From Patescibacteria group bacterium (GTDB lineage Bacteria > Patescibacteriota > Patescibacteriia > Patescibacteriales > UBA12465), in contig JAKLGM010000016.1 of NCBI GenBank assembly GCA_022710685.1, forward strand, positions 1-24,697: a stretch of DNA of 24,697 nt, in the 5' to 3' direction. Shown here piece by piece: positions 5,555 through 23,874 of this stretch. The position numbers and the translations under genes were made by a program. The stretch's first letter is position 1. Every line of letters starts with the position of its first letter. A model generated the notes under the pieces. It was given only the letters and a program-made list of their open reading frames with translations, searched no databases and was not told where the DNA came from.

Positions 5555-6901
5555 TTAAAACAGCTCCTTTATCTTACTGGTGCCATAATAATATATATTG
5601 CGTCCCTTTTTTATCGGGCGCAAAAAACCTTTCTGAACCAGAATATTAAGGTCCTTACCGGCCGTCATTTTAGTTATTTGATAAATATTCATGTGCATCT
5701 TCTGGGTTGTTCTCTCCTCTTGGTCACCCGACAAATAGCGCAAAAGATATATCTGCCTTTCGTTTAATTTATACTTTAATTCACCGGCCTTTTTCATCCT
5801 TATGTTGCCCCAAGATTCTTTTTCTAAATATTCAGAAAAATCCCGGACAGCTAACTTTATTTTTCTGATATTATAATCGATAAAATAGGTCAGATCATTA
5901 TCATCTTGTTCGGAATAAACATAAGCCATCTTATATTGGTTAGGGGACTTTTTAATTATTTTAGAAATCGGTAGGTAGACAAAAGCCCAATATCCCTTTC
6001 TGATCAGATACCAATAGAATAGCAAGCGCGCCAACCGGCCATTACCATCGGTGAAAGGATGGAGGTAGCCCAACCAAAAATGAAGCATGATAGCCTTAAT
6101 AACCGGATGGACAAAAGAATCGGTCTCCAGCTCGTCATTAGCAAAGTTTATCAGTAATTTCAATTCTTTATTAACAAAATCAACCTTGGGTGCTTCATGA
6201 TAAATATTACCCGAAGCTTTATCTATAACATAAATATTATCCTTGTCAGTTCTTAGCCTAGGCCGATCGCCTTCGTCATCCTTCGTTTCATTGGTAATCA
6301 TTCGATGCAACTCCAAAAGCAAGGGCAAGCTCATTTTTTCATTTTTGTACTTTTCTTCAATCTCTCGCATAGACAAATAGCTGTTGACTATCATCTGTTC
6401 TGAGGCATTTCTCGGCTTCCGGCCATCACGCAACATTCTCTTCGCTACTTGCCGGCTAGTAGCAGCCCCCTCCAACTGGGAAGAAGCGATAGCCTCTTCC
6501 ATAATTCCTCGGGAAATCAATTTTTGCTTATTTTGCTTATCAATATCAGATTTACGAACAAATAATTCACCTCCGGTATTCATGTCTATTTCATGAAAAA
6601 ATTCTTCTAAGCAGGGAATTTTAATCCATTTAAAATTATCGCCTGATTTATTCTTAATAGGAGACTTTATGCTTTGCGATCCCCTGACAATTTTGACCAA
6701 TTTCCATAGCTCCTCTTTGGTAATCCCGACCGGAGCGGGCTCTTTGTATTTAACATTATCCCAATAAATATATTCCGGCTCAAAAGTCTTTTTCACAAAA
6801 TCAAAGATTATCTCTTTGTTTCTGCTATTTTCAGAGAGAGACTGAATTAGATTTCTTTCTTTAATTTTGGATAAATCTGGCTTTTTCAACTCAAAATACA
6901 T
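5555..6901 (-). CDS. Fic/Doc-family protein (probable AMPylase) with an N-terminal auto-inhibitory helix and a C-terminal winged HTH
   Basis: Canonical Fic motif HPFTDGNGRLARLL (HxFx[DE]GNGRxxR). Upstream inhibitory motif SSQLEG ([ST]xxxE[GN]), as in class II Fic proteins. C-terminal wHTH-like segment (ERQIYLLRYLSG...ITKMTAGKDLNILVQKGFL). The gene is markedly more AT-rich than its neighbours. Confidence 0.9.
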   Translation of the reverse strand: MYFELKKPDLSKIKERNLIQSLSENSRNKEIIFDFVKKTFEPEYIYWDNVKYKEPAPVGITKEELWKLVKIVRGSQSIKSPIKNKSGDNFKWIKIPCLEEFFHEIDMNTGGELFVRKSDIDKQNKQKLISRGIMEEAIASSQLEGAATSRQVAKRMLRDGRKPRNASEQMIVNSYLSMREIEEKYKNEKMSLPLLLELHRMITNETKDDEGDRPRLRTDKDNIYVIDKASGNIYHEAPKVDFVNKELKLLINFANDELETDSFVHPVIKAIMLHFWLGYLHPFTDGNGRLARLLFYWYLIRKGYWAFVYLPISKIIKKSPNQYKMAYVYSEQDDNDLTYFIDYNIRKIKLAVRDFSEYLEKESWGNIRMKKAGELKYKLNERQIYLLRYLSGDQEERTTQKMHMNIYQITKMTAGKDLNILVQKGFLRPIKKGRNIYYYGTSKIKELF

Positions 6902-11686: not shown

Positions 11687-13192
11687 CTATTGATAATTTC
11701 CTAGCTGATCGGTTTTCATTAAATAAATATCATTATCATTAACATCAGACGAACCAGAGATAATATAGCCGCCATCTGAGGTCTGCTGGATGCTGGCAAA
11801 ATCGATATTTCCGAGGGCTATTTCAGTCTGAGCCCAGGTTAACACTCCGGCAGAATCAGTTTTGACCAAATAAAAATCAGAATCAGTGACATGAGTCTGG
11901 CCGGCTATAATATAGCCACCATCGGCTGTTTGATCAACGGAATAAGCGTCCTGACTATTAGTACCACCGATGCTCTGCTCCCAAGTGACGTTGCCGCTAG
12001 AATCAGTTTTGACTAAATAGACGTCACCATCATTAGCATTAGTACTGCCAGTAATAATATAGCCTCCATCAGTTGTTTGTTGGACAGCCCGTCCGGATTG
12101 AACATCGGCACCACCTATATTCTGCTCCCAAGTGACGTTGCCGCTAGAATCAGTTTTAACCAAGTAAACGTCCCAATCATTAGCATCGGACAAACCAGAG
12201 ATAATATAGCCGCCATCAGCTGCCTGCTGGACAAAACTGCCCGTTTGATAGCCGACACCGCCGATATTCTGCTCCCAAGTGACGTTGCCGCTAATATCGG
12301 TTTTCACTAAATAGACATCATTGTCGTGAACATCAGTATTGCCGGCTATAATATAACCACCATCGGCTGTTTGATCAACGGAATAAGCGTCCTGACTATT
12401 AGTACCACCGATGCTCTGATCCCAAGTAACATTGCCGCTAGAATCAGTTTTAACTAAGTAAACATTAGAATCAGAACCGGTCGCATCATCAATGCCAACG
12501 ATAATATAACCGCCGTCAGTTGTTTGCTGGACGACTCCCGCTTCCTGATAGCCAGCGCCACCGATTTCTTGGTGCCAGGATTCTATTCCATTAGAATCCA
12601 CTTTCAATAAATACATATTGCCATTAGGATCGCTGGCATAGCTGGCGCCAGAAATAATATAACCACCGTCTGATGTTTGATCAACAGAAGCAGATGTTTG
12701 GTTGCCTGGACCGCCATACAGCAAAGCAAACATTGCCAAGGAGGAACAATCTACATCCATAATACCGGCCGGGGTAAGACATTTGGGACCACTATCTAGG
12801 GTGCCAGTAGTGTTACCCAAACAGAAAGAGACGGTATAAGAATTACCATTTTCGGTCTGTTGGTAAGAGAAAGTGTTTTGGCCGGATGTGCAAGAGCCAT
12901 CAACCGGAGTCGGAGCCGAAGGGATAATCTGCATATAAGTCGAGGTGCCGTAGGTAGAAGTAGAAAAAATAGAGCCAGAAGCAAACTCCTCCGCTGTCGG
13001 ATAGCGGTTTTTATCATTAAAAAATAATTCCAAGGCGGTCTGAACCTGTTTCATATCACCCGCCCTTCTCGCATCTCGGGCTTTAGCCCGCGCGCTGGAT
13101 AAAGCTATGACTGAAACCGTGGCGATAACGCCGATAATGGCGATAACCACCAGAAGCTCTATTAAAGTGAAGGCTTTTTTTAACCTAAACAT
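11687..13192 (-). CDS. Type IV pilin-like protein (prepilin N-terminal methylation-site/TM helix) fused to ~7 tandem SBBP-like beta-propeller repeats
   Basis: N-terminus MFRLKKAFTLIELLVVIAIIGVIA (class III signal). Conserved pilin head (SAPTPVDGSCTS..FCLGNTTGTLDSGPKCLTP). Then repeats of about 49 aa (DGGYII.G.....D.YLVKTDSSGNVTWEQ.IGG.....S..QT.). The DNA carries near-exact ~110-bp copies 441 bp apart. Confidence 0.85.
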   Translation of the reverse strand: MFRLKKAFTLIELLVVIAIIGVIATVSVIALSSARAKARDARRAGDMKQVQTALELFFNDKNRYPTAEEFASGSIFSTSTYGTSTYMQIIPSAPTPVDGSCTSGQNTFSYQQTENGNSYTVSFCLGNTTGTLDSGPKCLTPAGIMDVDCSSLAMFALLYGGPGNQTSASVDQTSDGGYIISGASYASDPNGNMYLLKVDSNGIESWHQEIGGAGYQEAGVVQQTTDGGYIIVGIDDATGSDSNVYLVKTDSSGNVTWDQSIGGTNSQDAYSVDQTADGGYIIAGNTDVHDNDVYLVKTDISGNVTWEQNIGGVGYQTGSFVQQAADGGYIISGLSDANDWDVYLVKTDSSGNVTWEQNIGGADVQSGRAVQQTTDGGYIITGSTNANDGDVYLVKTDSSGNVTWEQSIGGTNSQDAYSVDQTADGGYIIAGQTHVTDSDFYLVKTDSAGVLTWAQTEIALGNIDFASIQQTSDGGYIISGSSDVNDNDIYLMKTDQLGNYQ

Positions 13193-13288
13193 AAAAACCT
13201 GTTAATTTGTTATCTTCTAGCGCCGCTATAGGCAATAGCTCGAACGATATTCCAAGCCAAAGAGTTAAAGCCATAAATAAAATCAAGT

Positions 13289-15070
13289 TTATTCTATGAT
13301 ATAAGGGCCATAAACATTCAAGTTGGTGGCGGAGCTAGTCAAGCTCAATCCTGTCCCCGAAAGAGCACCTGCTTGGCTAGAAATATTGGGATCAGTTATA
13401 TCTAAATTACTGTCAACAACGGTCGGGGCGTAAGGAGAAACTGTAAAAATAGAGGAAGCTGAGCCAGTATCGCTAGAAACAAAATTCGGCTTTATTTTCA
13501 TAAACCCAGCGCTACTGCCAAAAATAGTTCCTCCTAGATCATCATACTCATCAAGATAAGAGCCAATATACAAATCTGGACCATCAGCCCAGCAAACATA
13601 GCCTTCTTCATACCCCCAAGTATCAAGATTCCTCTCACGAATTACCTCGCTACCCATCAAAGATAGATCATTCCGATTAATACTAGTCACCCAGATATCG
13701 CCACTGCCATCATTGGAAGACCCGGTATAACCAACACCATAAATCGAGCCCCCGGAAAGACAGAGGGAGCCAAAATAATCCAATGCCGAACCGCCATAAA
13801 TCTTCCTGCCTAAAAGGCTGAGGTCTGATTTATCAAATTTTAATATTACAGCACTGCGGCCGCCCGGACCCTCTCCGATAATCTGGCCATAAGCATAATA
13901 ATAGTCGCTATCAATAGCTCCCCTAAATCCCTGAAAAAAAGTAATTCCGGAACGGCCATAAGCATTCTCCGCTTCAACCGCCATCGTAGTTTTGTTAATC
14001 TTTAGGGCGACCAAAGGGCTATTTCCAAGAACGGCGGATAAATACAAATAATTACCATCGGAAGCCAATGATCTGATATTGCTAGCATAAGAATTTTGCT
14101 TAATCAAATTTAAATCAAAATCATAAACCATCACCGTGTTATCAATCCCGACATATAAGTAACTATCATCCTTAGCTATACTATATATATAATTTAAGCT
14201 GCCGTTACCAAGACTTAAAGCCGAAACCAACGATAAATCGGATTTATTAAATTTTGCCAGAACTCCATCTTGACTGCTGATATTACGATTGATAATTCCC
14301 GCCGCATAAATATAATTACCCTGCTCAACAATGGCATGAAAATAATCTTTACCGGTGCCACCATAAATTCTTTTAGCTGCTATAGTCAAATCTGTTTTAT
14401 CATATTTAATAATCATTCCATCGGTCTGGCCGGCGCCCTCAGATCCGTTATCGCCAACGGCATAAATATACTGAGAATCTGAAGTCAAGTCATATATTTC
14501 CTTGTTGGTTGAATCAGTATTCCCATAAATCTGGGCAAAGAAAAAATTATCCTTTAGAACACACGAACCAGACTGACAGGCATAACCATAATCGCAGGTC
14601 GGATCGCAAGGAACGGAACTGGCGCTACAATCTAAATCTAAAATTCCACCTGGGGTAAGACATTTGGGGCCACTATCTAAGGTGCCAGTAGTATTGCCTA
14701 AACAGAAAGAAATAGTATAGGAATTACCGTTCTCAGTTTGGGTATAATAAAAACTATTTTGGTCGGAAGTACAGCTTCCGTCTACTGGGGTCGGAGCGGA
14801 AGGGATAATCTGCATATAAGTAGAAGTACCGTAGGTAGAAGTAGAAAAAATTGACCCTAGGGCAAATTCTTCCATAGTGGGATAACGGTTTTTGTCGTTG
14901 AAAAATAACTCTAGGGCTGTTTGAATCTGCTTCATATCACCCGCTCTTTTAGCATCGCGGGACTTAGCTCGGGCGTTTTGAAGGGCAATGATAGAAATAG
15001 TGGCTAAAACGCCAATAATAGCGATAACTACCAACAACTCAATGAGAGTAAAAGCGCGCTTGATCTTCAT
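13289..15070 (-). CDS. Type IV pilin-like protein, paralog of the preceding gene, with a different C-terminal beta-propeller-like repeat domain
   Basis: N-terminus MKIKRAFTLIELLVVIAIIGVLA. Its first ~150 aa are nearly identical to those of gene 11687-13192. This is followed by a Cys-rich linker (CSASSVPCDPTCDYGYACQSGSCV) and YIY..G/KxDLSL repeat units. Confidence 0.85.
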   Translation of the reverse strand: MKIKRAFTLIELLVVIAIIGVLATISIIALQNARAKSRDAKRAGDMKQIQTALELFFNDKNRYPTMEEFALGSIFSTSTYGTSTYMQIIPSAPTPVDGSCTSDQNSFYYTQTENGNSYTISFCLGNTTGTLDSGPKCLTPGGILDLDCSASSVPCDPTCDYGYACQSGSCVLKDNFFFAQIYGNTDSTNKEIYDLTSDSQYIYAVGDNGSEGAGQTDGMIIKYDKTDLTIAAKRIYGGTGKDYFHAIVEQGNYIYAAGIINRNISSQDGVLAKFNKSDLSLVSALSLGNGSLNYIYSIAKDDSYLYVGIDNTVMVYDFDLNLIKQNSYASNIRSLASDGNYLYLSAVLGNSPLVALKINKTTMAVEAENAYGRSGITFFQGFRGAIDSDYYYAYGQIIGEGPGGRSAVILKFDKSDLSLLGRKIYGGSALDYFGSLCLSGGSIYGVGYTGSSNDGSGDIWVTSINRNDLSLMGSEVIRERNLDTWGYEEGYVCWADGPDLYIGSYLDEYDDLGGTIFGSSAGFMKIKPNFVSSDTGSASSIFTVSPYAPTVVDSNLDITDPNISSQAGALSGTGLSLTSSATNLNVYGPYIIE

Positions 15071-16577: not shown

Positions 16578-16733
16578 TTATTTGGTTTCTTTGTGGAGGG
16601 TATGCTTGCGGCAAGTATTGCAGAACTTATTCATCTCTAATCTCTCCTTCAAAATCTTTTTGTTTTTGTGGGAGTTATAGTTGACAGTTTTGCACTCGGT
16701 GCATTCCAACTTGATCATGTTGTCTTGCGACAT
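16578..16733 (-). CDS. rpmG: 50S ribosomal protein L33
   Basis: 51-aa [54 protein letters not shown]. It carries the L33 zinc-ribbon CxxC..CxxC and the diagnostic [10 protein letters not shown]-terminus. Not in the ORF track (under 60 aa). An extended -10 TGTATAAT lies about 60 nt upstream. Confidence 0.85.
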
Positions 16734-17875: not shown

Positions 17876-17908
17876 ATAAAAAACAACCCTAGAATCAGGG
17901 TTGTTTTG
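17876..17908 (-). terminator. Rho-independent terminator immediately 3' of tRNA-Tyr
   Basis: AACAACCCT-agaatc-AGGGTTGTT. On the minus strand it is followed by TTTTTTATT. Confidence 0.65.
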
Positions 17909-17991
17909 TGGGCCGGGCAGGATTCGGACCTGCGAAGGCGCGAGCCAGCAGATTTACAGTCTGCCCCAGTTGACCGCTTTGGTACCGACCC
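17909..17991 (-). tRNA. tRNA-Tyr (anticodon GTA), long variable arm
   Basis: Reverse complement GGGTCGG-TA-CCAA-AGCGGTCAACTGG-GGCAGA-CTGTAAA-TCTGC-(long variable arm TGGCTCGCGCCTTCGC)-AGG-TCCGAAT-CCTG-CCCGGCCC-A. The architecture parallels E. coli tRNA-Tyr. CCA is not encoded. Confidence 0.8.
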
Positions 17992-18012: not shown

Positions 18013-18040
18013 ATTTTACACAATAAAAACAGATTGTCAA
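18013..18040 (-). promoter_or_regulatory. Promoter for tRNA-Tyr: TTGACA, 16 nt, extended -10 TGTAAAAT
   Basis: On the minus strand: TTGACA (18040-18035), then TG-TAAAAT (18020-18013), about 22 nt upstream of the tRNA 5' end. Confidence 0.4.
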
Positions 18041-18060
18041 ATAAACCGACAATCCAATAA

Positions 18061-18477
18061 CTAGGCGCCGACTATATTCCCTAAAATAAATCTGACAGCA
18101 GCGTAAGAAGTAAAAATGATAACCAAACCAATCGCCGCCCACATCAGAATATCTCTACCCTGAGCTATCTTCTTTTCATTGCCGGCCGCCATCATCCAAA
18201 CTAAGCCGCCCCAGATAAACATCAATAAAGCCACCGAGCCTAAGACGCCCAAGATAGCGCTAATAATCTTACCAATTAGTTGCTGGAAGGTGCTGACGCC
18301 CAAAGGATTATCTATGGAAACCGGAGTGCCATAACTAGCCATAACGTCAGAGCTATTATTCTCATTACTAACAGCACCACTAATTCCGCCCGCAACCCCG
18401 CCTTGCGCCAAGGCCGAAGTGGCCGCCAAAAGTAGAAAGGCCAGAAAGATAATGGGAATAATAATTTTTTTAGTCAT
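18061..18477 (-). CDS. Small secreted two-helix membrane protein, TrbC/VirB2-like (T4SS-pilin-like) family; paralog 1
   Basis: Signal peptide MTKKIIIPIIFLAFLLLAATSALA. G/S-rich variable region. Conserved NPLGVSTFQQLIGKIISAILGVLGSVALLMFIWGGLVWMMAAGNEKKIAQGRDILMWAAIGLVIIFTSYAAV two-helix hairpin. The track ORF starts 5 codons earlier at a TTG. The ATG at 18477 is preferred. Confidence 0.7.
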   Translation of the reverse strand: MTKKIIIPIIFLAFLLLAATSALAQGGVAGGISGAVSNENNSSDVMASYGTPVSIDNPLGVSTFQQLIGKIISAILGVLGSVALLMFIWGGLVWMMAAGNEKKIAQGRDILMWAAIGLVIIFTSYAAVRFILGNIVGA

Positions 18478-18501
18478 ATTTTTGTAAAACAAAATAATTA
18501 A

Positions 18502-18960
18502 TTAAGCGCCGATAACATCGCTGATCAGGAACTTGACGGCGGCATAAGAGGTAAAGACAACCGCCATGCCAATAGCCGCCCAGATCAAAATATCACGACC
18601 CTGGGAAACCTTTTTCTCATTACCAGCGGCTGTCATCCAAATGAAACCGCCATAGATGAACATCAAGAGCGCAATAGTACCGATAATGCCTAAGACGGCG
18701 CTGATGATTTTACCAACCAACTGTTGCGGCTTAGTAACCGTGCCCAAGGGATTGGTAAAGGTAACGCTGGACCGTTCAGTGCTCTTTTCTGCTTTAGTGG
18801 TAGTGCACATTACCTGCGGTGTAGCCCCAACCATTACAGTTATCTGCTCCTGCCCCTCCGGACAAGTCCCAGAAGTCCCAGATTGGGCTAAGGCCAAGGG
18901 AGCAATGAAAAAAGATACAAAAGCTAAAAAAGAAACAGAAATGATAGTTTTTCTAAGCAT
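18502..18960 (-). CDS. Small secreted two-helix membrane protein, TrbC/VirB2-like (T4SS-pilin-like) family; paralog 2
   Basis: Signal peptide MLRKTIISVSFLAFVSFFIAPLALA. Cys-containing variable region. Conserved NPLGTVTKPQQLVGKIISAVLGIIGTIALLMFIYGGFIWMTAAGNEKKVSQGRDILIWAAIGMAVVFTSYAAV. The same TTGTTTTACAAAAAT-ATG leader as paralog 1. Confidence 0.7.
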   Translation of the reverse strand: MLRKTIISVSFLAFVSFFIAPLALAQSGTSGTCPEGQEQITVMVGATPQVMCTTTKAEKSTERSSVTFTNPLGTVTKPQQLVGKIISAVLGIIGTIALLMFIYGGFIWMTAAGNEKKVSQGRDILIWAAIGMAVVFTSYAAVKFLISDVIGA

Positions 18961-19014
18961 ATTTTTGTAAAACAAGAGAATTAATAACTACTTATATTAA
19001 ACCATATTTTGGGA

Positions 19015-19046
19015 AATAAAAAAAGGGGGTTTTGTGAACCCCCTTT
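19015..19046 (-). terminator. Rho-independent terminator after the SPFH-partner gene
   Basis: GGGGGTT-ttgtg-AACCCCC. On the minus strand it is followed by TTTTTTTATTT. Confidence 0.75.
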
Positions 19047-19054
19047 AGGTAACT

Positions 19055-19924
19055 TTATTGCCGGTAAAGCATCAAACTTATCGTTTGCGCTTTGTTGGCT
19101 TTGATATAAAACGTCGCATGATCACGGTGCCCCAGGTCAACTTCGCTCGGACTAGCGCCTCTGACTTTAGTGCCATCGTCAAATACCATAATGTAGTCAA
19201 AGTTCGGATCACTAGAAGTGACTTCGTAGTGAATGAGCTCGGTCGGGTCAATGGCAATCCAGTGAGTTTTGCCTCCAGCCTTCAAGTTGAAGACATAGGG
19301 GGTACTCCGGACGTGGTAGATAACTTTGTCTTGTGAATCCAGGAGCGGCTCGTTCCAGCAAGTATCGGCGTTGACGGGGTGGATAAAATATTCCAGACCA
19401 TCGTTAGAAACCTTGATGGTAGCTATATCTTCCACGTAATCGCGGGAGTAGATATAACCTTTGTCTTGGTTGGTAAACGCCTTGAAATTGCCGTCAGCGT
19501 CGTAATAATTCTGCGTATAGTGCTGCGCGATATGAATGCCCAAGAACAGAAAGAGTGCCAGAGCAGTGGTGTTACCCTTACTCTGAACAGCTGAATCTAA
19601 AACATAGAGCAGGCCGGCAGCGGCACAGAAAATAACGACGGTCTTGGCCCAGAAGTCCCAACCTGGACTGGCAAACCACACGCTGTGATCAAACCAGATC
19701 CAGGAGGCTAAGAGACTGGTAAAGTAGGCAACGCCCAGGCAGAAGAAAAATTTGCCTAAACGAAACAATTTACTGTCCTTGTTATCCTGGTACCAAGCCA
19801 CAAATTTGTCCCAACGGCTCAAACCGTTATTAGCCTCATTAGCGGCATTTGGTGTTGTCGGAGAAGGAGTTCTGTGATGTAGACTCCCCCTCTCTCTTCC
19901 TTTTTTGAATGGTGAATCTTTCAT
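19055..19924 (-). CDS. Membrane protein co-transcribed downstream of the SPFH gene (possible NfeD-like partner)
   Basis: 289 aa. Basic/Pro-rich cytoplasmic N-terminus, about 3 TM helices, and a ~160-aa beta-rich C-terminal domain. A perfect SD (AAGGAGG) lies 8 nt before the ATG, 20 nt after the SPFH stop. Confidence 0.75.
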   Translation of the reverse strand: MKDSPFKKGRERGSLHHRTPSPTTPNAANEANNGLSRWDKFVAWYQDNKDSKLFRLGKFFFCLGVAYFTSLLASWIWFDHSVWFASPGWDFWAKTVVIFCAAAGLLYVLDSAVQSKGNTTALALFLFLGIHIAQHYTQNYYDADGNFKAFTNQDKGYIYSRDYVEDIATIKVSNDGLEYFIHPVNADTCWNEPLLDSQDKVIYHVRSTPYVFNLKAGGKTHWIAIDPTELIHYEVTSSDPNFDYIMVFDDGTKVRGASPSEVDLGHRDHATFYIKANKAQTISLMLYRQ

Positions 19925-19944: not shown

Positions 19945-21105
19945 TTATGATTTTGCAATATTGCTTCCAGTCTGGGCCAAAATACCCAGCTCCACAAATT
20001 TTTTCAGCATGGAATCAGGCAGGGCATTTTCAAGTACCACCGTCTTGTCTCCCAAGCTTTCCCACTTCTTCAGCTCAACAATCATTTCCTTAGCTTCCTG
20101 CGGGGTAATACCGCCGCTTTTCGCTAAAGAATTGATTTTCTTGGCTAGGGCATTACCCTGGAGTTCAACGCTTTTAGCATCGCCTTTGGCTCTTTTGACA
20201 GTAGCTTCGGCATCAGCTTCGGCATTGAGGACGGTAGTTTTTTTCTGGATCTGGGCGGCCTCAAATTCCTCTGAAGCTACCAGCTTCTTTTCCCTGGCCT
20301 GCTGGATGTGTTCCGGAATTTCAATATCCGAAACAGTCAGCTTGGTTACTTCCACTCCCCAGCCGTCAGAAATTTCCGTGAAAAATAATCTGTCTTTGAA
20401 TCTTTTTCTTTCAGTAGACACGATCTTGTTCAGGTCGGTAATTAATTTAACCCTTTCTTCGTTTGACAGGCCTTTAGTGACCTTGCCGGCAGCTTTCATT
20501 TTCTCTACCTCTTCGTAGTAAATGATAACCGCGGGAAGATCCATCAGGTGCTTGTCCATATTGGCCTCATCCAAATTGTAGAGACCGCAAGTGGCGCGTA
20601 AAGCTCCTTCCAAACGAGCGGCCGTACTGAGAACAAAATCATCAATTGCATACGTTGCCTTGAGGGAATCAATTACCCGAAAGTGGATGCTTGATTTCAC
20701 CTTGGTCGAAGCGTCATGAAAGTCAATTTTGTCTTCCGGATCTTCATAGAATAGGGGATAGTTGGTTTCAGCCATGTCGATAAGTTCACGGCATTTCATC
20801 AGACCGAAAATTGAAATGGCTATATGGAGACCTGATTTCCAGGTTGCCATATATTCGCCATTTAATTCCACGATCATCTCATGGTTTTCCGGTACTGTAG
20901 TCCAGCCCCGGTAAATGGTAATGGCAGCCGAGATAATTACGGCAGCGGTAAAGATTGCTACGGCCCAGCCAAAGCTCAGCCAAATTGAAGCGACTGCTGC
21001 AATAGCAGCGCAGAGGATTAAATCCAGGGCTATGAACCCGATCCACCAAATGGTAGGGTCAGCCGGATTTTTCCTGATTGCGGTAATACGGTCATTTGCT
21101 TTCAT
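19945..21105 (-). CDS. SPFH/band-7 domain protein (stomatin/flotillin/HflKC superfamily)
   Basis: N-terminal TM segment, an SPFH core (EVTKLTVSDIEIPEHIQQA...), and a long Ala/Glu/Lys-rich coiled-coil C-terminus. Confidence 0.9.
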   Translation of the reverse strand: MKANDRITAIRKNPADPTIWWIGFIALDLILCAAIAAVASIWLSFGWAVAIFTAAVIISAAITIYRGWTTVPENHEMIVELNGEYMATWKSGLHIAISIFGLMKCRELIDMAETNYPLFYEDPEDKIDFHDASTKVKSSIHFRVIDSLKATYAIDDFVLSTAARLEGALRATCGLYNLDEANMDKHLMDLPAVIIYYEEVEKMKAAGKVTKGLSNEERVKLITDLNKIVSTERKRFKDRLFFTEISDGWGVEVTKLTVSDIEIPEHIQQAREKKLVASEEFEAAQIQKKTTVLNAEADAEATVKRAKGDAKSVELQGNALAKKINSLAKSGGITPQEAKEMIVELKKWESLGDKTVVLENALPDSMLKKFVELGILAQTGSNIAKS

Positions 21106-22362: not shown

Positions 22363-23874
22363 CTAATTAGCTGGCTCAAAACCTAGTCGCACTAAATCTT
22401 CTGGCTGAGGTCGAAGATGAACTAGATAGCGACCACGAACCAAGGCAATATCACCCAAATTATATAGCTGGGAAAAGGAAGGCAATTGGTACCATAACCC
22501 CACCAAAGCGCAGTTATTATTTTGCTTATATTCTGAATCTACCACTACTGCATCTTGCGGCCGCCGGTTATCAATTTCCTGATGCCTAGCCATAACATCA
22601 GGGATAAAATAATCTACATGCTGACTTATTATCCAATCCGTAGCATAAACGCACTTGATATTATTTTGATTTAAAAATTTTTTCAAATATTCTATTCTCT
22701 CAACTTCCGTATAATTATCATTGATTTTAGCAAAAATGTAGTTATGAAAAATAGCGCCACAAATTAAAGAGAAAACGGAATAAACCATTAAAAACCAAAA
22801 TAAAACTCTCCTAAATATAGGGTGAGCGACTTGTTTCGCGGTTGAAACAATTAAAAATACGGCCGGGATAAAAAATGGCAGAAGATAACGATAGGAGAAT
22901 TCACGATCATTGTAAAAAAGCATGAAGATGACAAACAAAACAACAGAAAGTAAAATCGCCAGATTAATTTTCTTTAATTTTTTTACTGATAATAAATATA
23001 AACAAAAAAGAATTGCTAAAATGAAGATACCGATAAAAACCCCGCTGTTAAAAGAGGCCCAGGGGTTAAGTTTTAAACGGGAAACATCAAAAAACCTACC
23101 ACCATAACTAACATAATAATGGCTAATAATATTTTTAATATTTGAAGCTAGCTGCTCAAACCCCAATTTGTTCTGAGATTGATAGCTCTGGCCCAAAAAA
23201 TACAATAAAACCTTAGACCCCAAAAAAGCACCGATTAGGCTAGAGGCGAAAATCAAAACTGACTTAAAATTATAATTCACCAAAAAGTAATAGGCGGCTA
23301 AAGGAAGGGCGACCGGCAGCCACAAGGGTTGAGCGTAATAAATCAACACTAATAATACTCCTATAACTACTGACCGACAGTTATTCTTTTTAGAGACGGC
23401 CAACAGAAAAATTACGCTAGAGGCCAATAGGGCGGTTAAATATCCACCCCGGGCTTTAGTGGCCCAGTCAAACCAAGCCGGGACAGACGATGCAAAAAGA
23501 GTGGCCAGCAAGGCCCATTTTCGGCTATTAAATATTTTTTTGCCGGCATAATAAAGAACTATTATACTTGCCAGCCAAAGCAAAAGCATGGCTATTTTCA
23601 TGCTAAAAATATTGATACCAAAAAAGAACCCCAATATTGCTCCCAGTAGAACCTCAAAAGAAACAAAACCATAATTTTGACCAGAAAAAAATAATGGCAA
23701 ATCACCATTATTTAAAAAACCTTGAATCATGGTGCCAAATATTGCCTCATCGCCATCTATAAAAAATCCCTTATTTACAAAATAAGCGATCCGGGGTAAA
23801 GAGTTGAACAAAATTATCAAAATAATAAACAAGAAATCTTTGCTTTTTATAACTGTCAGAAACTTTTTAAACAT
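22363..23874 (-). CDS. Polytopic GT-C fold glycosyltransferase (ArnT/PMT-like, family 39/83-type)
   Basis: 503 aa, 11 or more TM helices, with an N-terminal periplasmic-loop acidic motif (FFIDGDEAIFG). Very AT-rich. In an operon with the GT2 gene. Confidence 0.75.
   Translation of the reverse strand: MFKKFLTVIKSKDFLFIILIILFNSLPRIAYFVNKGFFIDGDEAIFGTMIQGFLNNGDLPLFFSGQNYGFVSFEVLLGAILGFFFGINIFSMKIAMLLLWLASIIVLYYAGKKIFNSRKWALLATLFASSVPAWFDWATKARGGYLTALLASSVIFLLAVSKKNNCRSVVIGVLLVLIYYAQPLWLPVALPLAAYYFLVNYNFKSVLIFASSLIGAFLGSKVLLYFLGQSYQSQNKLGFEQLASNIKNIISHYYVSYGGRFFDVSRLKLNPWASFNSGVFIGIFILAILFCLYLLSVKKLKKINLAILLSVVLFVIFMLFYNDREFSYRYLLPFFIPAVFLIVSTAKQVAHPIFRRVLFWFLMVYSVFSLICGAIFHNYIFAKINDNYTEVERIEYLKKFLNQNNIKCVYATDWIISQHVDYFIPDVMARHQEIDNRRPQDAVVVDSEYKQNNNCALVGLWYQLPSFSQLYNLGDIALVRGRYLVHLRPQPEDLVRLGFEPAN

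Follow-up and report, generated by a model that had tools for sequence, protein, structure and literature searches.

What is the role of two small tandem genes that resemble conjugative pilin genes and lie among housekeeping genes of a member of the Patescibacteria? The pair, which we call genes A and B, occupies the minus strand of contig JAKLGM010000016.1 (assembly GCA_022710685.1, Patescibacteria group bacterium), analysed here from position 1 to 24,697; this stretch of 24,697 nucleotides (nt) is hereafter called the window. Both proteins belong to the small pilin family PF18895 (T4SS_pilin), have the same signal peptide-plus-hairpin architecture, and possess a conserved core under strong purifying selection. 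The explanation that we favour, with moderate confidence, is that A and B form a bicistronic unit encoding divergent VirB2-like pilin subunits of a type IV secretion system (T4SS), which VirB4 would assemble into a filament or conduit.

An initial annotation of this DNA, made from its letters alone, had proposed two small paralogs of about 140-150 amino acids (aa). Two minus-strand open reading frames (ORFs) are indeed present, gene A at 18502-18960 and gene B at 18061-18477, and their products of 152 and 138 aa share 48% identity (BLASTP, E 6e-47). The ATG codons at 18960 and 18477 are their likely starts; the span first given for the pair, 18061-18975, includes the right ORFs but was counted from in-frame upstream TTG codons (157 aa for A and 143 aa for B), which are less likely starts than the ATGs. 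The two genes are made up as follows:

18502-18960, minus strand: gene A, 152 aa plus stop (ORF, PF18895 39.9 bits, AlphaFold2 (AF2) model, hydropathy).
18886-18960, minus strand: gene A signal peptide, aa 1-25 (hydropathy and AXA site).
18760-18885, minus strand: gene A variable Cys-containing segment, aa 26-67.
18505-18759, minus strand: gene A conserved hairpin core, aa 68-152.
18592-18630, minus strand: gene A loop AAGNEKKVSQGRD, inside the conserved core.
18061-18477, minus strand: gene B, 138 aa plus stop (ORF, PF18895 48.4 bits, 48% identity to gene A).
18406-18477, minus strand: gene B signal peptide, aa 1-24 (hydropathy).
18316-18405, minus strand: gene B G/S-rich variable segment, aa 25-54.
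18064-18315, minus strand: gene B conserved core, aa 55-138.
18151-18189, minus strand: gene B loop AAGNEKKIAQGRD, inside the conserved core.

The identical gene pair was recovered in five independent metagenome assemblies (the gene A protein, P0001, is identical in all five) and is therefore no assembly artefact.

Membership in the small patescibacterial pilin family, which had only been suspected, was established by a hidden Markov model (HMM) search: gene B (48.4 bits) and gene A (39.9 bits) both passed the PF18895 gathering threshold of 26.6 bits, over model positions 2-63 of 71. The same domain was present in all 105 relatives found among 5.8 billion proteins; these belong to Falkowbacteria and other members of the Patescibacteria, and several of them bear the name 'pilin' or 'Type IV secretion system pilin' in their sources. 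The resemblance to VirB2/TrbC that had been read from the letters holds through intermediate relatives, not as a direct match to the corresponding family, PF04956. This family was matched at E≤0.01 by 16 of 36 aligned family members, and its cut-off of 27.9 bits was exceeded by three relatives, namely P0041 (35.9 bits, model positions 1-97 of 98), P0067 (32.9 bits, nearly the whole model) and P0038 (29.3 bits, the C-terminal two-thirds). An hhalign comparison with Agrobacterium tumefaciens VirB2, whose query sequence was checked against PDB 8exh/8cue, was in register over helix 1 and the loop, and weak (E 0.005, probability 7%). Judging from these profile matches, the VirB2/TrbC link of A and B is indirect but real. 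When the core was searched by tblastn against 72,556 plasmids, no match was obtained; at BLAST sensitivity, the family is thus no plasmid-borne pilin.

Each predicted precursor starts with a signal peptide comprising a K/R-rich n-region, a hydrophobic core and the sequence ALA|Q, with ALA at residues 23-25 in A and 22-24 in B. The ALA|Q ending agrees with the initial description, and both sites satisfy the -3/-1 rule; the calls, based on this rule and on Kyte-Doolittle hydropathy, are heuristic. Conservation between A and B differs markedly by region: identity is 50% in the signal peptide, falls to 21% in the variable part, where a 13-residue gap occurs, and reaches 65% in the last 84-85 residues. 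The variable segment is G/S/N-rich in B and contains two cysteines (C33 and C52) in A, much as first read. The AF2 model of gene A has helices at residues 2-19, 78-109 and 115-149, with a predicted local distance difference test (pLDDT) score of 84-93 over the last two; these are hydrophobic by Kyte-Doolittle, in agreement with the AF2 hairpin, and are connected by the loop AAGNEKK[VI][SA]QGRD, with a net charge of +1. The conserved C-terminal hairpin with its polar loop, also proposed from the letters, is therefore well founded. A signal peptide followed by two hydrophobic helices with a short polar loop is the layout common to the 36 aligned family members, among which the invariant non-hydrophobic positions are an NPL motif, G94, G104, G105, G113, G121 and W127.

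In gene A, C33 and C52 (nt 18805-18864, minus strand) bracket a predicted beta-hairpin, and Cys-rich N- or C-terminal extensions are common among members of the family alignment. These Cys-bracketed or Cys-rich extensions suggest disulfide-stabilised surface modules.

The prepilin N-methylation motif (PF07963/TIGR02532) was matched by neither A nor B in Pfam and NCBIfam, and they are therefore not type IV pilins. The apparatus is accordingly not competence-like, a possibility evoked at first, as A and B lack the motif carried by the true type IV pilin-like genes of the window at 11687-15070. These genes (11687-13192 and 13289-15070, minus strand) encode type IV pilin/pseudopilin-like proteins of 501 and 593 aa with a prepilin N-methylation motif; situated downstream of A and B at a distance of 3-6 kb, they represent a pilus system distinct from that of the pair.

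The two copies have been separated for a long time. Synonymous sites between their cores are saturated (proportion of synonymous differences, pS, 0.81; third-position identity 38%), and single-copy orthologs from other genomes resemble each core more (71-77% identity) than the two cores resemble one another (65%), which indicates that the duplication is old. The proportion of nonsynonymous differences (pN) is only 0.20 versus a pS of 0.81, and the core is thus under strong purifying selection.

The sequence TTGTTTTACAAAAAT followed by ATG occurs exactly twice in the window (18475-18492 and 18958-18975, minus strand), so that both genes have, as initially noted, an identical leader (18/18 nt including the ATG). 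No third leader-plus-ATG site exists in the window within 3 mismatches, and two matches were obtained in 0 of 100 shuffles. The two copies are located as follows:

18961-18975, minus strand: leader TTGTTTTACAAAAAT of gene A, 15 nt, abutting the ATG; no Shine-Dalgarno (SD) sequence.
18478-18492, minus strand: leader of gene B, the same 15 nt, occupying most of the 24-nt A-B spacer (18478-18501).

A 75-nt direct repeat (75% identity) covers the leader and the start of each gene. The claim that the duplication took in the translation-initiation region is therefore right as regards the shared leader, but copying alone is insufficient to explain it: given an old duplication, the 18/18 identity requires purifying selection or gene conversion beyond recent copying. 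Orthologs in two related loci (L003 and L004) are preceded by a similar leader, TTATCTTATAAAAAT-ATG. Most genes of the window lack an SD sequence, the only one with GAAGGAGG being that at 19055-19924. An A/U-rich, SD-independent initiation signal appears to be the likeliest function of the leader, which would then serve as a common translation-initiation signal for both cistrons of one mRNA. A role as promoter of a leaderless mRNA was considered and discarded because TTTTAC occupies positions -12 to -7 counted from the ATG; an Rfam scan at the leader detected no RNA family. Other tandem pilin pairs, for example that of locus L023, likewise have identical leaders.

The location of the gene B leader within such a short spacer implies co-transcription with gene A. 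Three further elements were recognised around the pair, whose immediate upstream neighbour is hereafter called gene X:

18990-19004, minus strand: candidate promoter -10 region TGGTTTAATATAAGT, extended -10-like, ~30 nt 5' of gene A, read by eye.
19022-19046, minus strand: terminator-like hairpin with a 10-bp stem (5 GC pairs) and a T-run, which ends gene X and parts it from the pilin pair.
18030-18056, minus strand: terminator-like hairpin with 11 pairs and TTTTT, 5 nt past the gene B stop, which closes the two-gene unit.

The candidate extended -10 element itself, TGGTTTAAT at 18996-19004, was read from the sequence and is absent from the output of a consensus scanner; in L002-L004, the DNA ahead of the orthologs has TAAGTAG...TTAATT conserved. 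Separated by 24 nt only and bordered on both sides by terminator-like hairpins, A and B look like one bicistronic unit.

Genes of this kind have been described before. In a survey of 3,035 Patescibacteria genomes based on PF04956 and PF18895, Quinonero-Coronel et al. (2025) found VirB2-like pilins in 1,948 assemblies that contain VirB4 (close to virB4 in 1,135), as well as 441 arrays of 2-11 pilin genes in 383 assemblies (identity mean 25%, maximum 54%), which they suggested to aid adaptation to different hosts (PMC12102498). Arrays consist of at least two strongly divergent pilin genes in tandem or one gene apart, and A and B, with their 24-nt spacer and 48% identity, form one. In Southlakia epibionticum, transposon sequencing by Wang et al. 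(2023) showed that a T4SS cluster including a series of pilins is essential for epibiotic growth (PMC10633639; the essential pilin array also in PMC12857230), and this cluster is described as having neither coupling protein nor relaxase (PMC10633639). A 2025 review presents patescibacterial T4SSs as the only Gram-positive-type T4SSs with potential pili (PMC12857230), their transported substrate and pilus formation being not yet established (PMC11665869, PMC12857230). The apparatus evoked by the initial annotation is hence far from uncharacterised, as it has been surveyed phylum-wide (PMC12102498) and found essential in one cultured species (PMC10633639). Since VirB2-like pilins and their arrays in Patescibacteria are already published, A and B are a new instance of a published kind: the gene family and its tandem arrays were described in 2023-2025, and the pair, though genuine, is for the most part ordinary.

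By analogy with VirB2, TraA and TrbC, the processing, topology, assembly, partner ATPase and host-contact role of the two proteins can be envisaged as follows. Sec would insert each precursor and signal peptidase I would cut it after ALA, leaving in the cytoplasmic membrane a hairpin of two transmembrane (TM) helices whose termini both face the exterior and whose basic loop (NEKK..QGR) lies on the inner side. A VirB4-type ATPase, belonging to a chromosomal T4SS related to the mating-pair formation (MPF) type FATA and encoded elsewhere in the genome, would extract these hairpins and polymerise them into a surface filament or conduit. In such a filament, the loop would line the lumen while the variable N-terminal segments, the beta-hairpin of A and the G/S-rich tail of B, would decorate the exterior, so that two divergent subunits might offer either a choice or a mixture of surfaces, plausibly suited to contacting different host cells. 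As has been proposed for Saccharibacteria, the T4SS would probably support life as an epibiont and not conjugation.

Several observations weigh against this interpretation. It would require a VirB4 encoded beyond the 24.7-kb contig, outside the DNA read here. The window, as already stated by the initial annotation, contains no other T4SS component detectable with Pfam on all ORFs of at least 80 aa or with phmmer and the pCF10 proteins PrgD-L and PcfC. We also compared the order and orientation of called and clustered ORFs in 79 related loci taken from species-representative genomes (in a scan of which the best match had 52% identity): 77 of the 79 had no VirB4, VirD4 or VirB6-like gene within ±10 kb by phmmer with pCF10 queries only, and their neighbourhoods were of housekeeping nature. 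A Pfam survey of 32 large neighbouring ORFs revealed housekeeping families alone among the matches listed (25 of 61 families), for which reason VirB4 was checked separately by phmmer. The conserved partner of the pilin ortholog is gene X and not any T4SS gene. At the protein level, neither A nor B matched PF04956 at E≤1, a profile search against PDB sequences retrieved no pilin and only cytochrome-oxidase TM helices (E>0.3), and the best Foldseek match of the AF2 model in the PDB had an E value of 0.17. Finally, no pilus and no filament of PF18895 proteins is reported in the accessible portions of PMC12102498, PMC10633639 and PMC12857230.

In favour of the same interpretation, VirB4 homologs were detected by phmmer with PrgJ in L037 (27-1241, E 1.8e-32) and L034 (67-1182, E 9.5e-29); both run off the locus edge and lie ~9 kb upstream of the orthologous pilin gene, with RecG and other housekeeping genes in between. 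As for the structural comparisons, the Foldseek matches were chemoreceptors, ATP-synthase subunit c and ESCRT hairpins, with an archaeal conjugation pilin at rank 29; because a helical hairpin is a generic fold, neither the PDB sequence search nor the fold search discriminates.

Such non-specific matches might be taken to mean that A and B are unrelated small membrane proteins, or even spurious ORFs, which look pilin-like through their hydrophobic composition alone. Weak Pfam matches to unrelated TM families (Cytochrom_C_asm, DUF6112, FixQ) point in the same direction, as do the cytochrome-oxidase helix found as best PDB sequence match and the non-specific fold search. This idea is scarcely credible in view of the strong purifying selection on the core (pN 0.20 versus pS 0.81), the invariant non-hydrophobic positions shared by over 100 homologs, the curated thresholds passed and the presence of the sequence in five assemblies; this conservation pattern effectively refutes it.

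A more substantial challenge to the assignment of A and B to a T4SS comes from their two upstream neighbours:

19055-19924, minus strand: gene X, 289 aa (N-terminus disordered; 3 TM helices; beta-rich domain of jelly-roll/cupin-like type at the C-terminus).
19945-21105, minus strand: SPFH/Band-7 protein, 386 aa (PF01145, 34.9 bits), the second upstream neighbour.

Gene X has no Pfam or NCBIfam match; its structural features come from an AF2 model with pLDDT 70, in which the beta-rich domain is an external beta-sandwich. An iterative HMM applied to the ORFs of the related loci joined highly divergent proteins at the position of X, a fast-evolving gene. In 32 of 69 loci, or 38 when cluster-mates and relaxed matches are included, a member of this family directly precedes the pilin ortholog with the same orientation, and only two X matches occur at other positions. 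SPFH accompanies X and the pilin in about 22 of the related loci. An exhaustive phmmer search with X gave only nine relatives, and large-database searches with the single sequence and with an alignment returned X itself and one relative, their word prefilter being swamped. When loci were sampled through X, each of the three places that offered sufficient DNA showed the succession Band_7, X, T4SS_pilin, the outer flanks of one (L084) being different. We also considered X as an NfeD-like partner of SPFH and rejected this, since it shows neither the NfeD domain PF01957 nor a C-terminal OB-fold.

X could be an unrecognised partner of the VirB2-like protein. SPFH, X and the pilin may even constitute a distinct three-part envelope module with X as dedicated partner (an anchor, a tip/adhesin or an assembly factor), either as an accessory component of the T4SS filament or in a T4SS-independent use of the VirB2-like hairpin, a proposal that we consider rather doubtful. 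In its T4SS-independent form, this would make the ortholog group an envelope module of SPFH scaffold, X and hairpin protein, for example a membrane-microdomain or surface-display unit, with only an ancestral kinship to VirB2. The same-strand adjacency of X in 32-38 of 69 loci with only two matches elsewhere, the three-gene order in 3/3 places sampled through X and the lack of VirB4 within 10 kb in 77 of 79 loci are in favour of such a module. However, six related loci (L042, L044, L046, L052, L055 and L060) have the pilin without SPFH and X, the gene upstream of X varies (SPFH, c25/c53 or c21/c69), X and gene A of the window are parted by a strong terminator-like hairpin, and X, besides not being NfeD-like, has no function that can be recognised. 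Moreover, a wider block (TPR, TIM, fpg, L33, AI-2E) is also syntenic, so that the X-pilin adjacency may partly be inherited gene order. Overall, this T4SS-independent explanation appears decidedly improbable.

Within a T4SS, A and B might alternatively be short membrane or channel subunits of a monoderm-type system, forming no extended pilus and at most a wall-spanning stub, in the manner of the small proteins with two TM helices known from conjugation systems of Gram-positives and Mollicutes (PrgF of pCF10; Mbov_0395/MMCAP2_0565 of Mycoplasma ICEs). This is consistent with the relationship of the patescibacterial VirB4 clade to MPF-FATA systems, which have no pili (PMC12102498), and with the sub-threshold match of all 36 family members to the whole 80-position model of NF045849 (Mbov_0395 family pilin-like conjugal transfer protein), with E values down to 3.6e-10. 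The family profile also aligned full-length and in register with PrgF of plasmid pCF10, which in addition gave weak phmmer matches to family members. However, the NF045849 scores of A and B (33.2 and 32.6 bits, E about 3-5e-8) are below the 40-bit equivalog cut-off and the similarity to PrgF is not significant (E 0.04). In addition, A and B possess, unlike PrgF, a signal peptide and a long variable, partly Cys-stabilised N-terminal extension. This pattern, like the array amplification, suggests surface exposure and diversification. We therefore regard such a non-pilus subunit as unlikely, if worth keeping in mind, and retain VirB2-like pilin subunits as the preferred interpretation of A and B.

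The pair is embedded in a conserved block with the order TPR protein, [SPFH, X], pilin(s), tRNA-Tyr, fpg, L33 and AI-2E transporter, with glycolysis genes and gyrB farther upstream. The tRNA gene is the immediate downstream neighbour:

17908-17991, minus strand: tRNA-Tyr(GTA), 84 nt (ARAGORN), directly downstream of the pair.

It has its own strong promoter-like site, TTGACA-16-TAAAAT (18040-18013). An Rfam scan at gathering threshold gave two other tRNAs and not this one. Besides three tRNAs, the window encodes, according to Pfam on the ORFs of at least 80 aa, fpg, an AI-2E transporter, an L,D-transpeptidase, a DEAD-box helicase, GreA, a sigma factor, a GT2 glycosyltransferase, the SPFH protein and a TPR protein. 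Between fpg and the AI-2E transporter lies a 51-aa Cys-rich ORF (16578-16733, minus strand) that a 60-aa ORF cut-off easily misses; it is conserved at this place in 29 related loci and corresponds to ribosomal protein L33 (PF00471 at the homologous position of L087). On the same strand, 5555-6901 encodes a 448-aa Fic-domain protein, and 22363-23874 a 503-aa polytopic membrane protein with no family match that adjoins the GT2 glycosyltransferase.

Of 78 related loci, 18 have more than one copy of the pilin gene. L057 (4480-6745) and L071 (9139-12379) carry arrays of five and six PF18895-like genes that do not adjoin VirB4; their neighbours, named by eye from N-terminal sequence, are UTP-glucose-1-phosphate uridylyltransferase-like and solute-binding-protein-like genes. 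Among L005-L080, many records are titled 'uncultured Gammaproteobacteria bacterium', one Omnitrophota and one Methylomirabilis, though they are close relatives of a Patescibacteria-type locus; they are probably mislabelled or mis-binned metagenome-assembled genomes (MAGs).

The locus is of interest because no T4SS but that of Patescibacteria is known to be essential to the organism carrying it, and because this T4SS is alone among those of monoderm type in having VirB2-like pilins. The locus offers a clean example outside Saccharimonadia of pilin genes uncoupled from virB4 and kept in a conserved housekeeping block, and introduces no new principle. It does provide two leads, the recurrent unannotated gene X, possibly a missing accessory subunit, and the perfectly conserved SD-less leader of both cistrons; the X-pilin association and the conserved leader go beyond what the accessible portions of PMC12102498, PMC10633639 and PMC12857230 describe.

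Compared with known systems, A and B resemble VirB2 of A. tumefaciens, TrbC of RP4 and TraA of F (PF04956; PDB 8exh, 8cue) in being small proteins with a long cleavable leader, two hydrophobic helices and a short basic loop. They differ in that their relatives, and not A and B themselves, match PF04956, and in the 30-45-residue variable extension at the mature N-terminus. Whereas VirB2, TrbC and TraA belong to diderms, the host of A and B is monoderm-like, with no outer-membrane core complex and no adjoining virB operon, and any pilus built from them is putative. PrgF of the Enterococcus faecalis pCF10 MPF-FATA T4SS, a 75-aa protein with two TM helices, has a hairpin equal in length to that of the family, with the non-significant similarity given above (E 0.04), but it lacks both the signal peptide and the extracellular extension of A and B. 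The Mbov_0395/MMCAP2_0565 proteins (NF045849) of Mycoplasma integrative and conjugative elements (ICEs) share with A and B the full-model match and a wall-reduced or monoderm host with an MPF-FATA-type T4SS; A and B differ by their chromosomal rather than ICE location, their additional N-terminal variable regions and a score of 33 versus 40 bits.

The remaining comparison is with the VirB2 arrays of Patescibacteria themselves, such as the essential six-gene array of S. epibionticum ML1 and the 'Sec-secreted array' of Nanosynbacter lyticus TM7x. A and B differ from them in having two copies only, in the absence of virB4 from the 5.7 kb upstream and 18 kb downstream on the contig, and in their location in an SPFH-X-pilin-tRNA-Tyr-fpg block that is unmentioned in the accessible portions of PMC12102498 and PMC10633639. 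Their lineage, in contrast to the Saccharimonadia arrays, is Falkowbacteria-like, the closest named relatives being Candidatus Falkowbacteria MAGs. Nevertheless, A and B share with these arrays the Pfam family, the Sec leader and the two-helix hairpin, a chromosomal location in a candidate phyla radiation (CPR) genome with no relaxase nearby, and the organisation as divergent tandem paralogs, whose 48% identity falls inside the published range (mean 25%, maximum 54%; PMC12102498).

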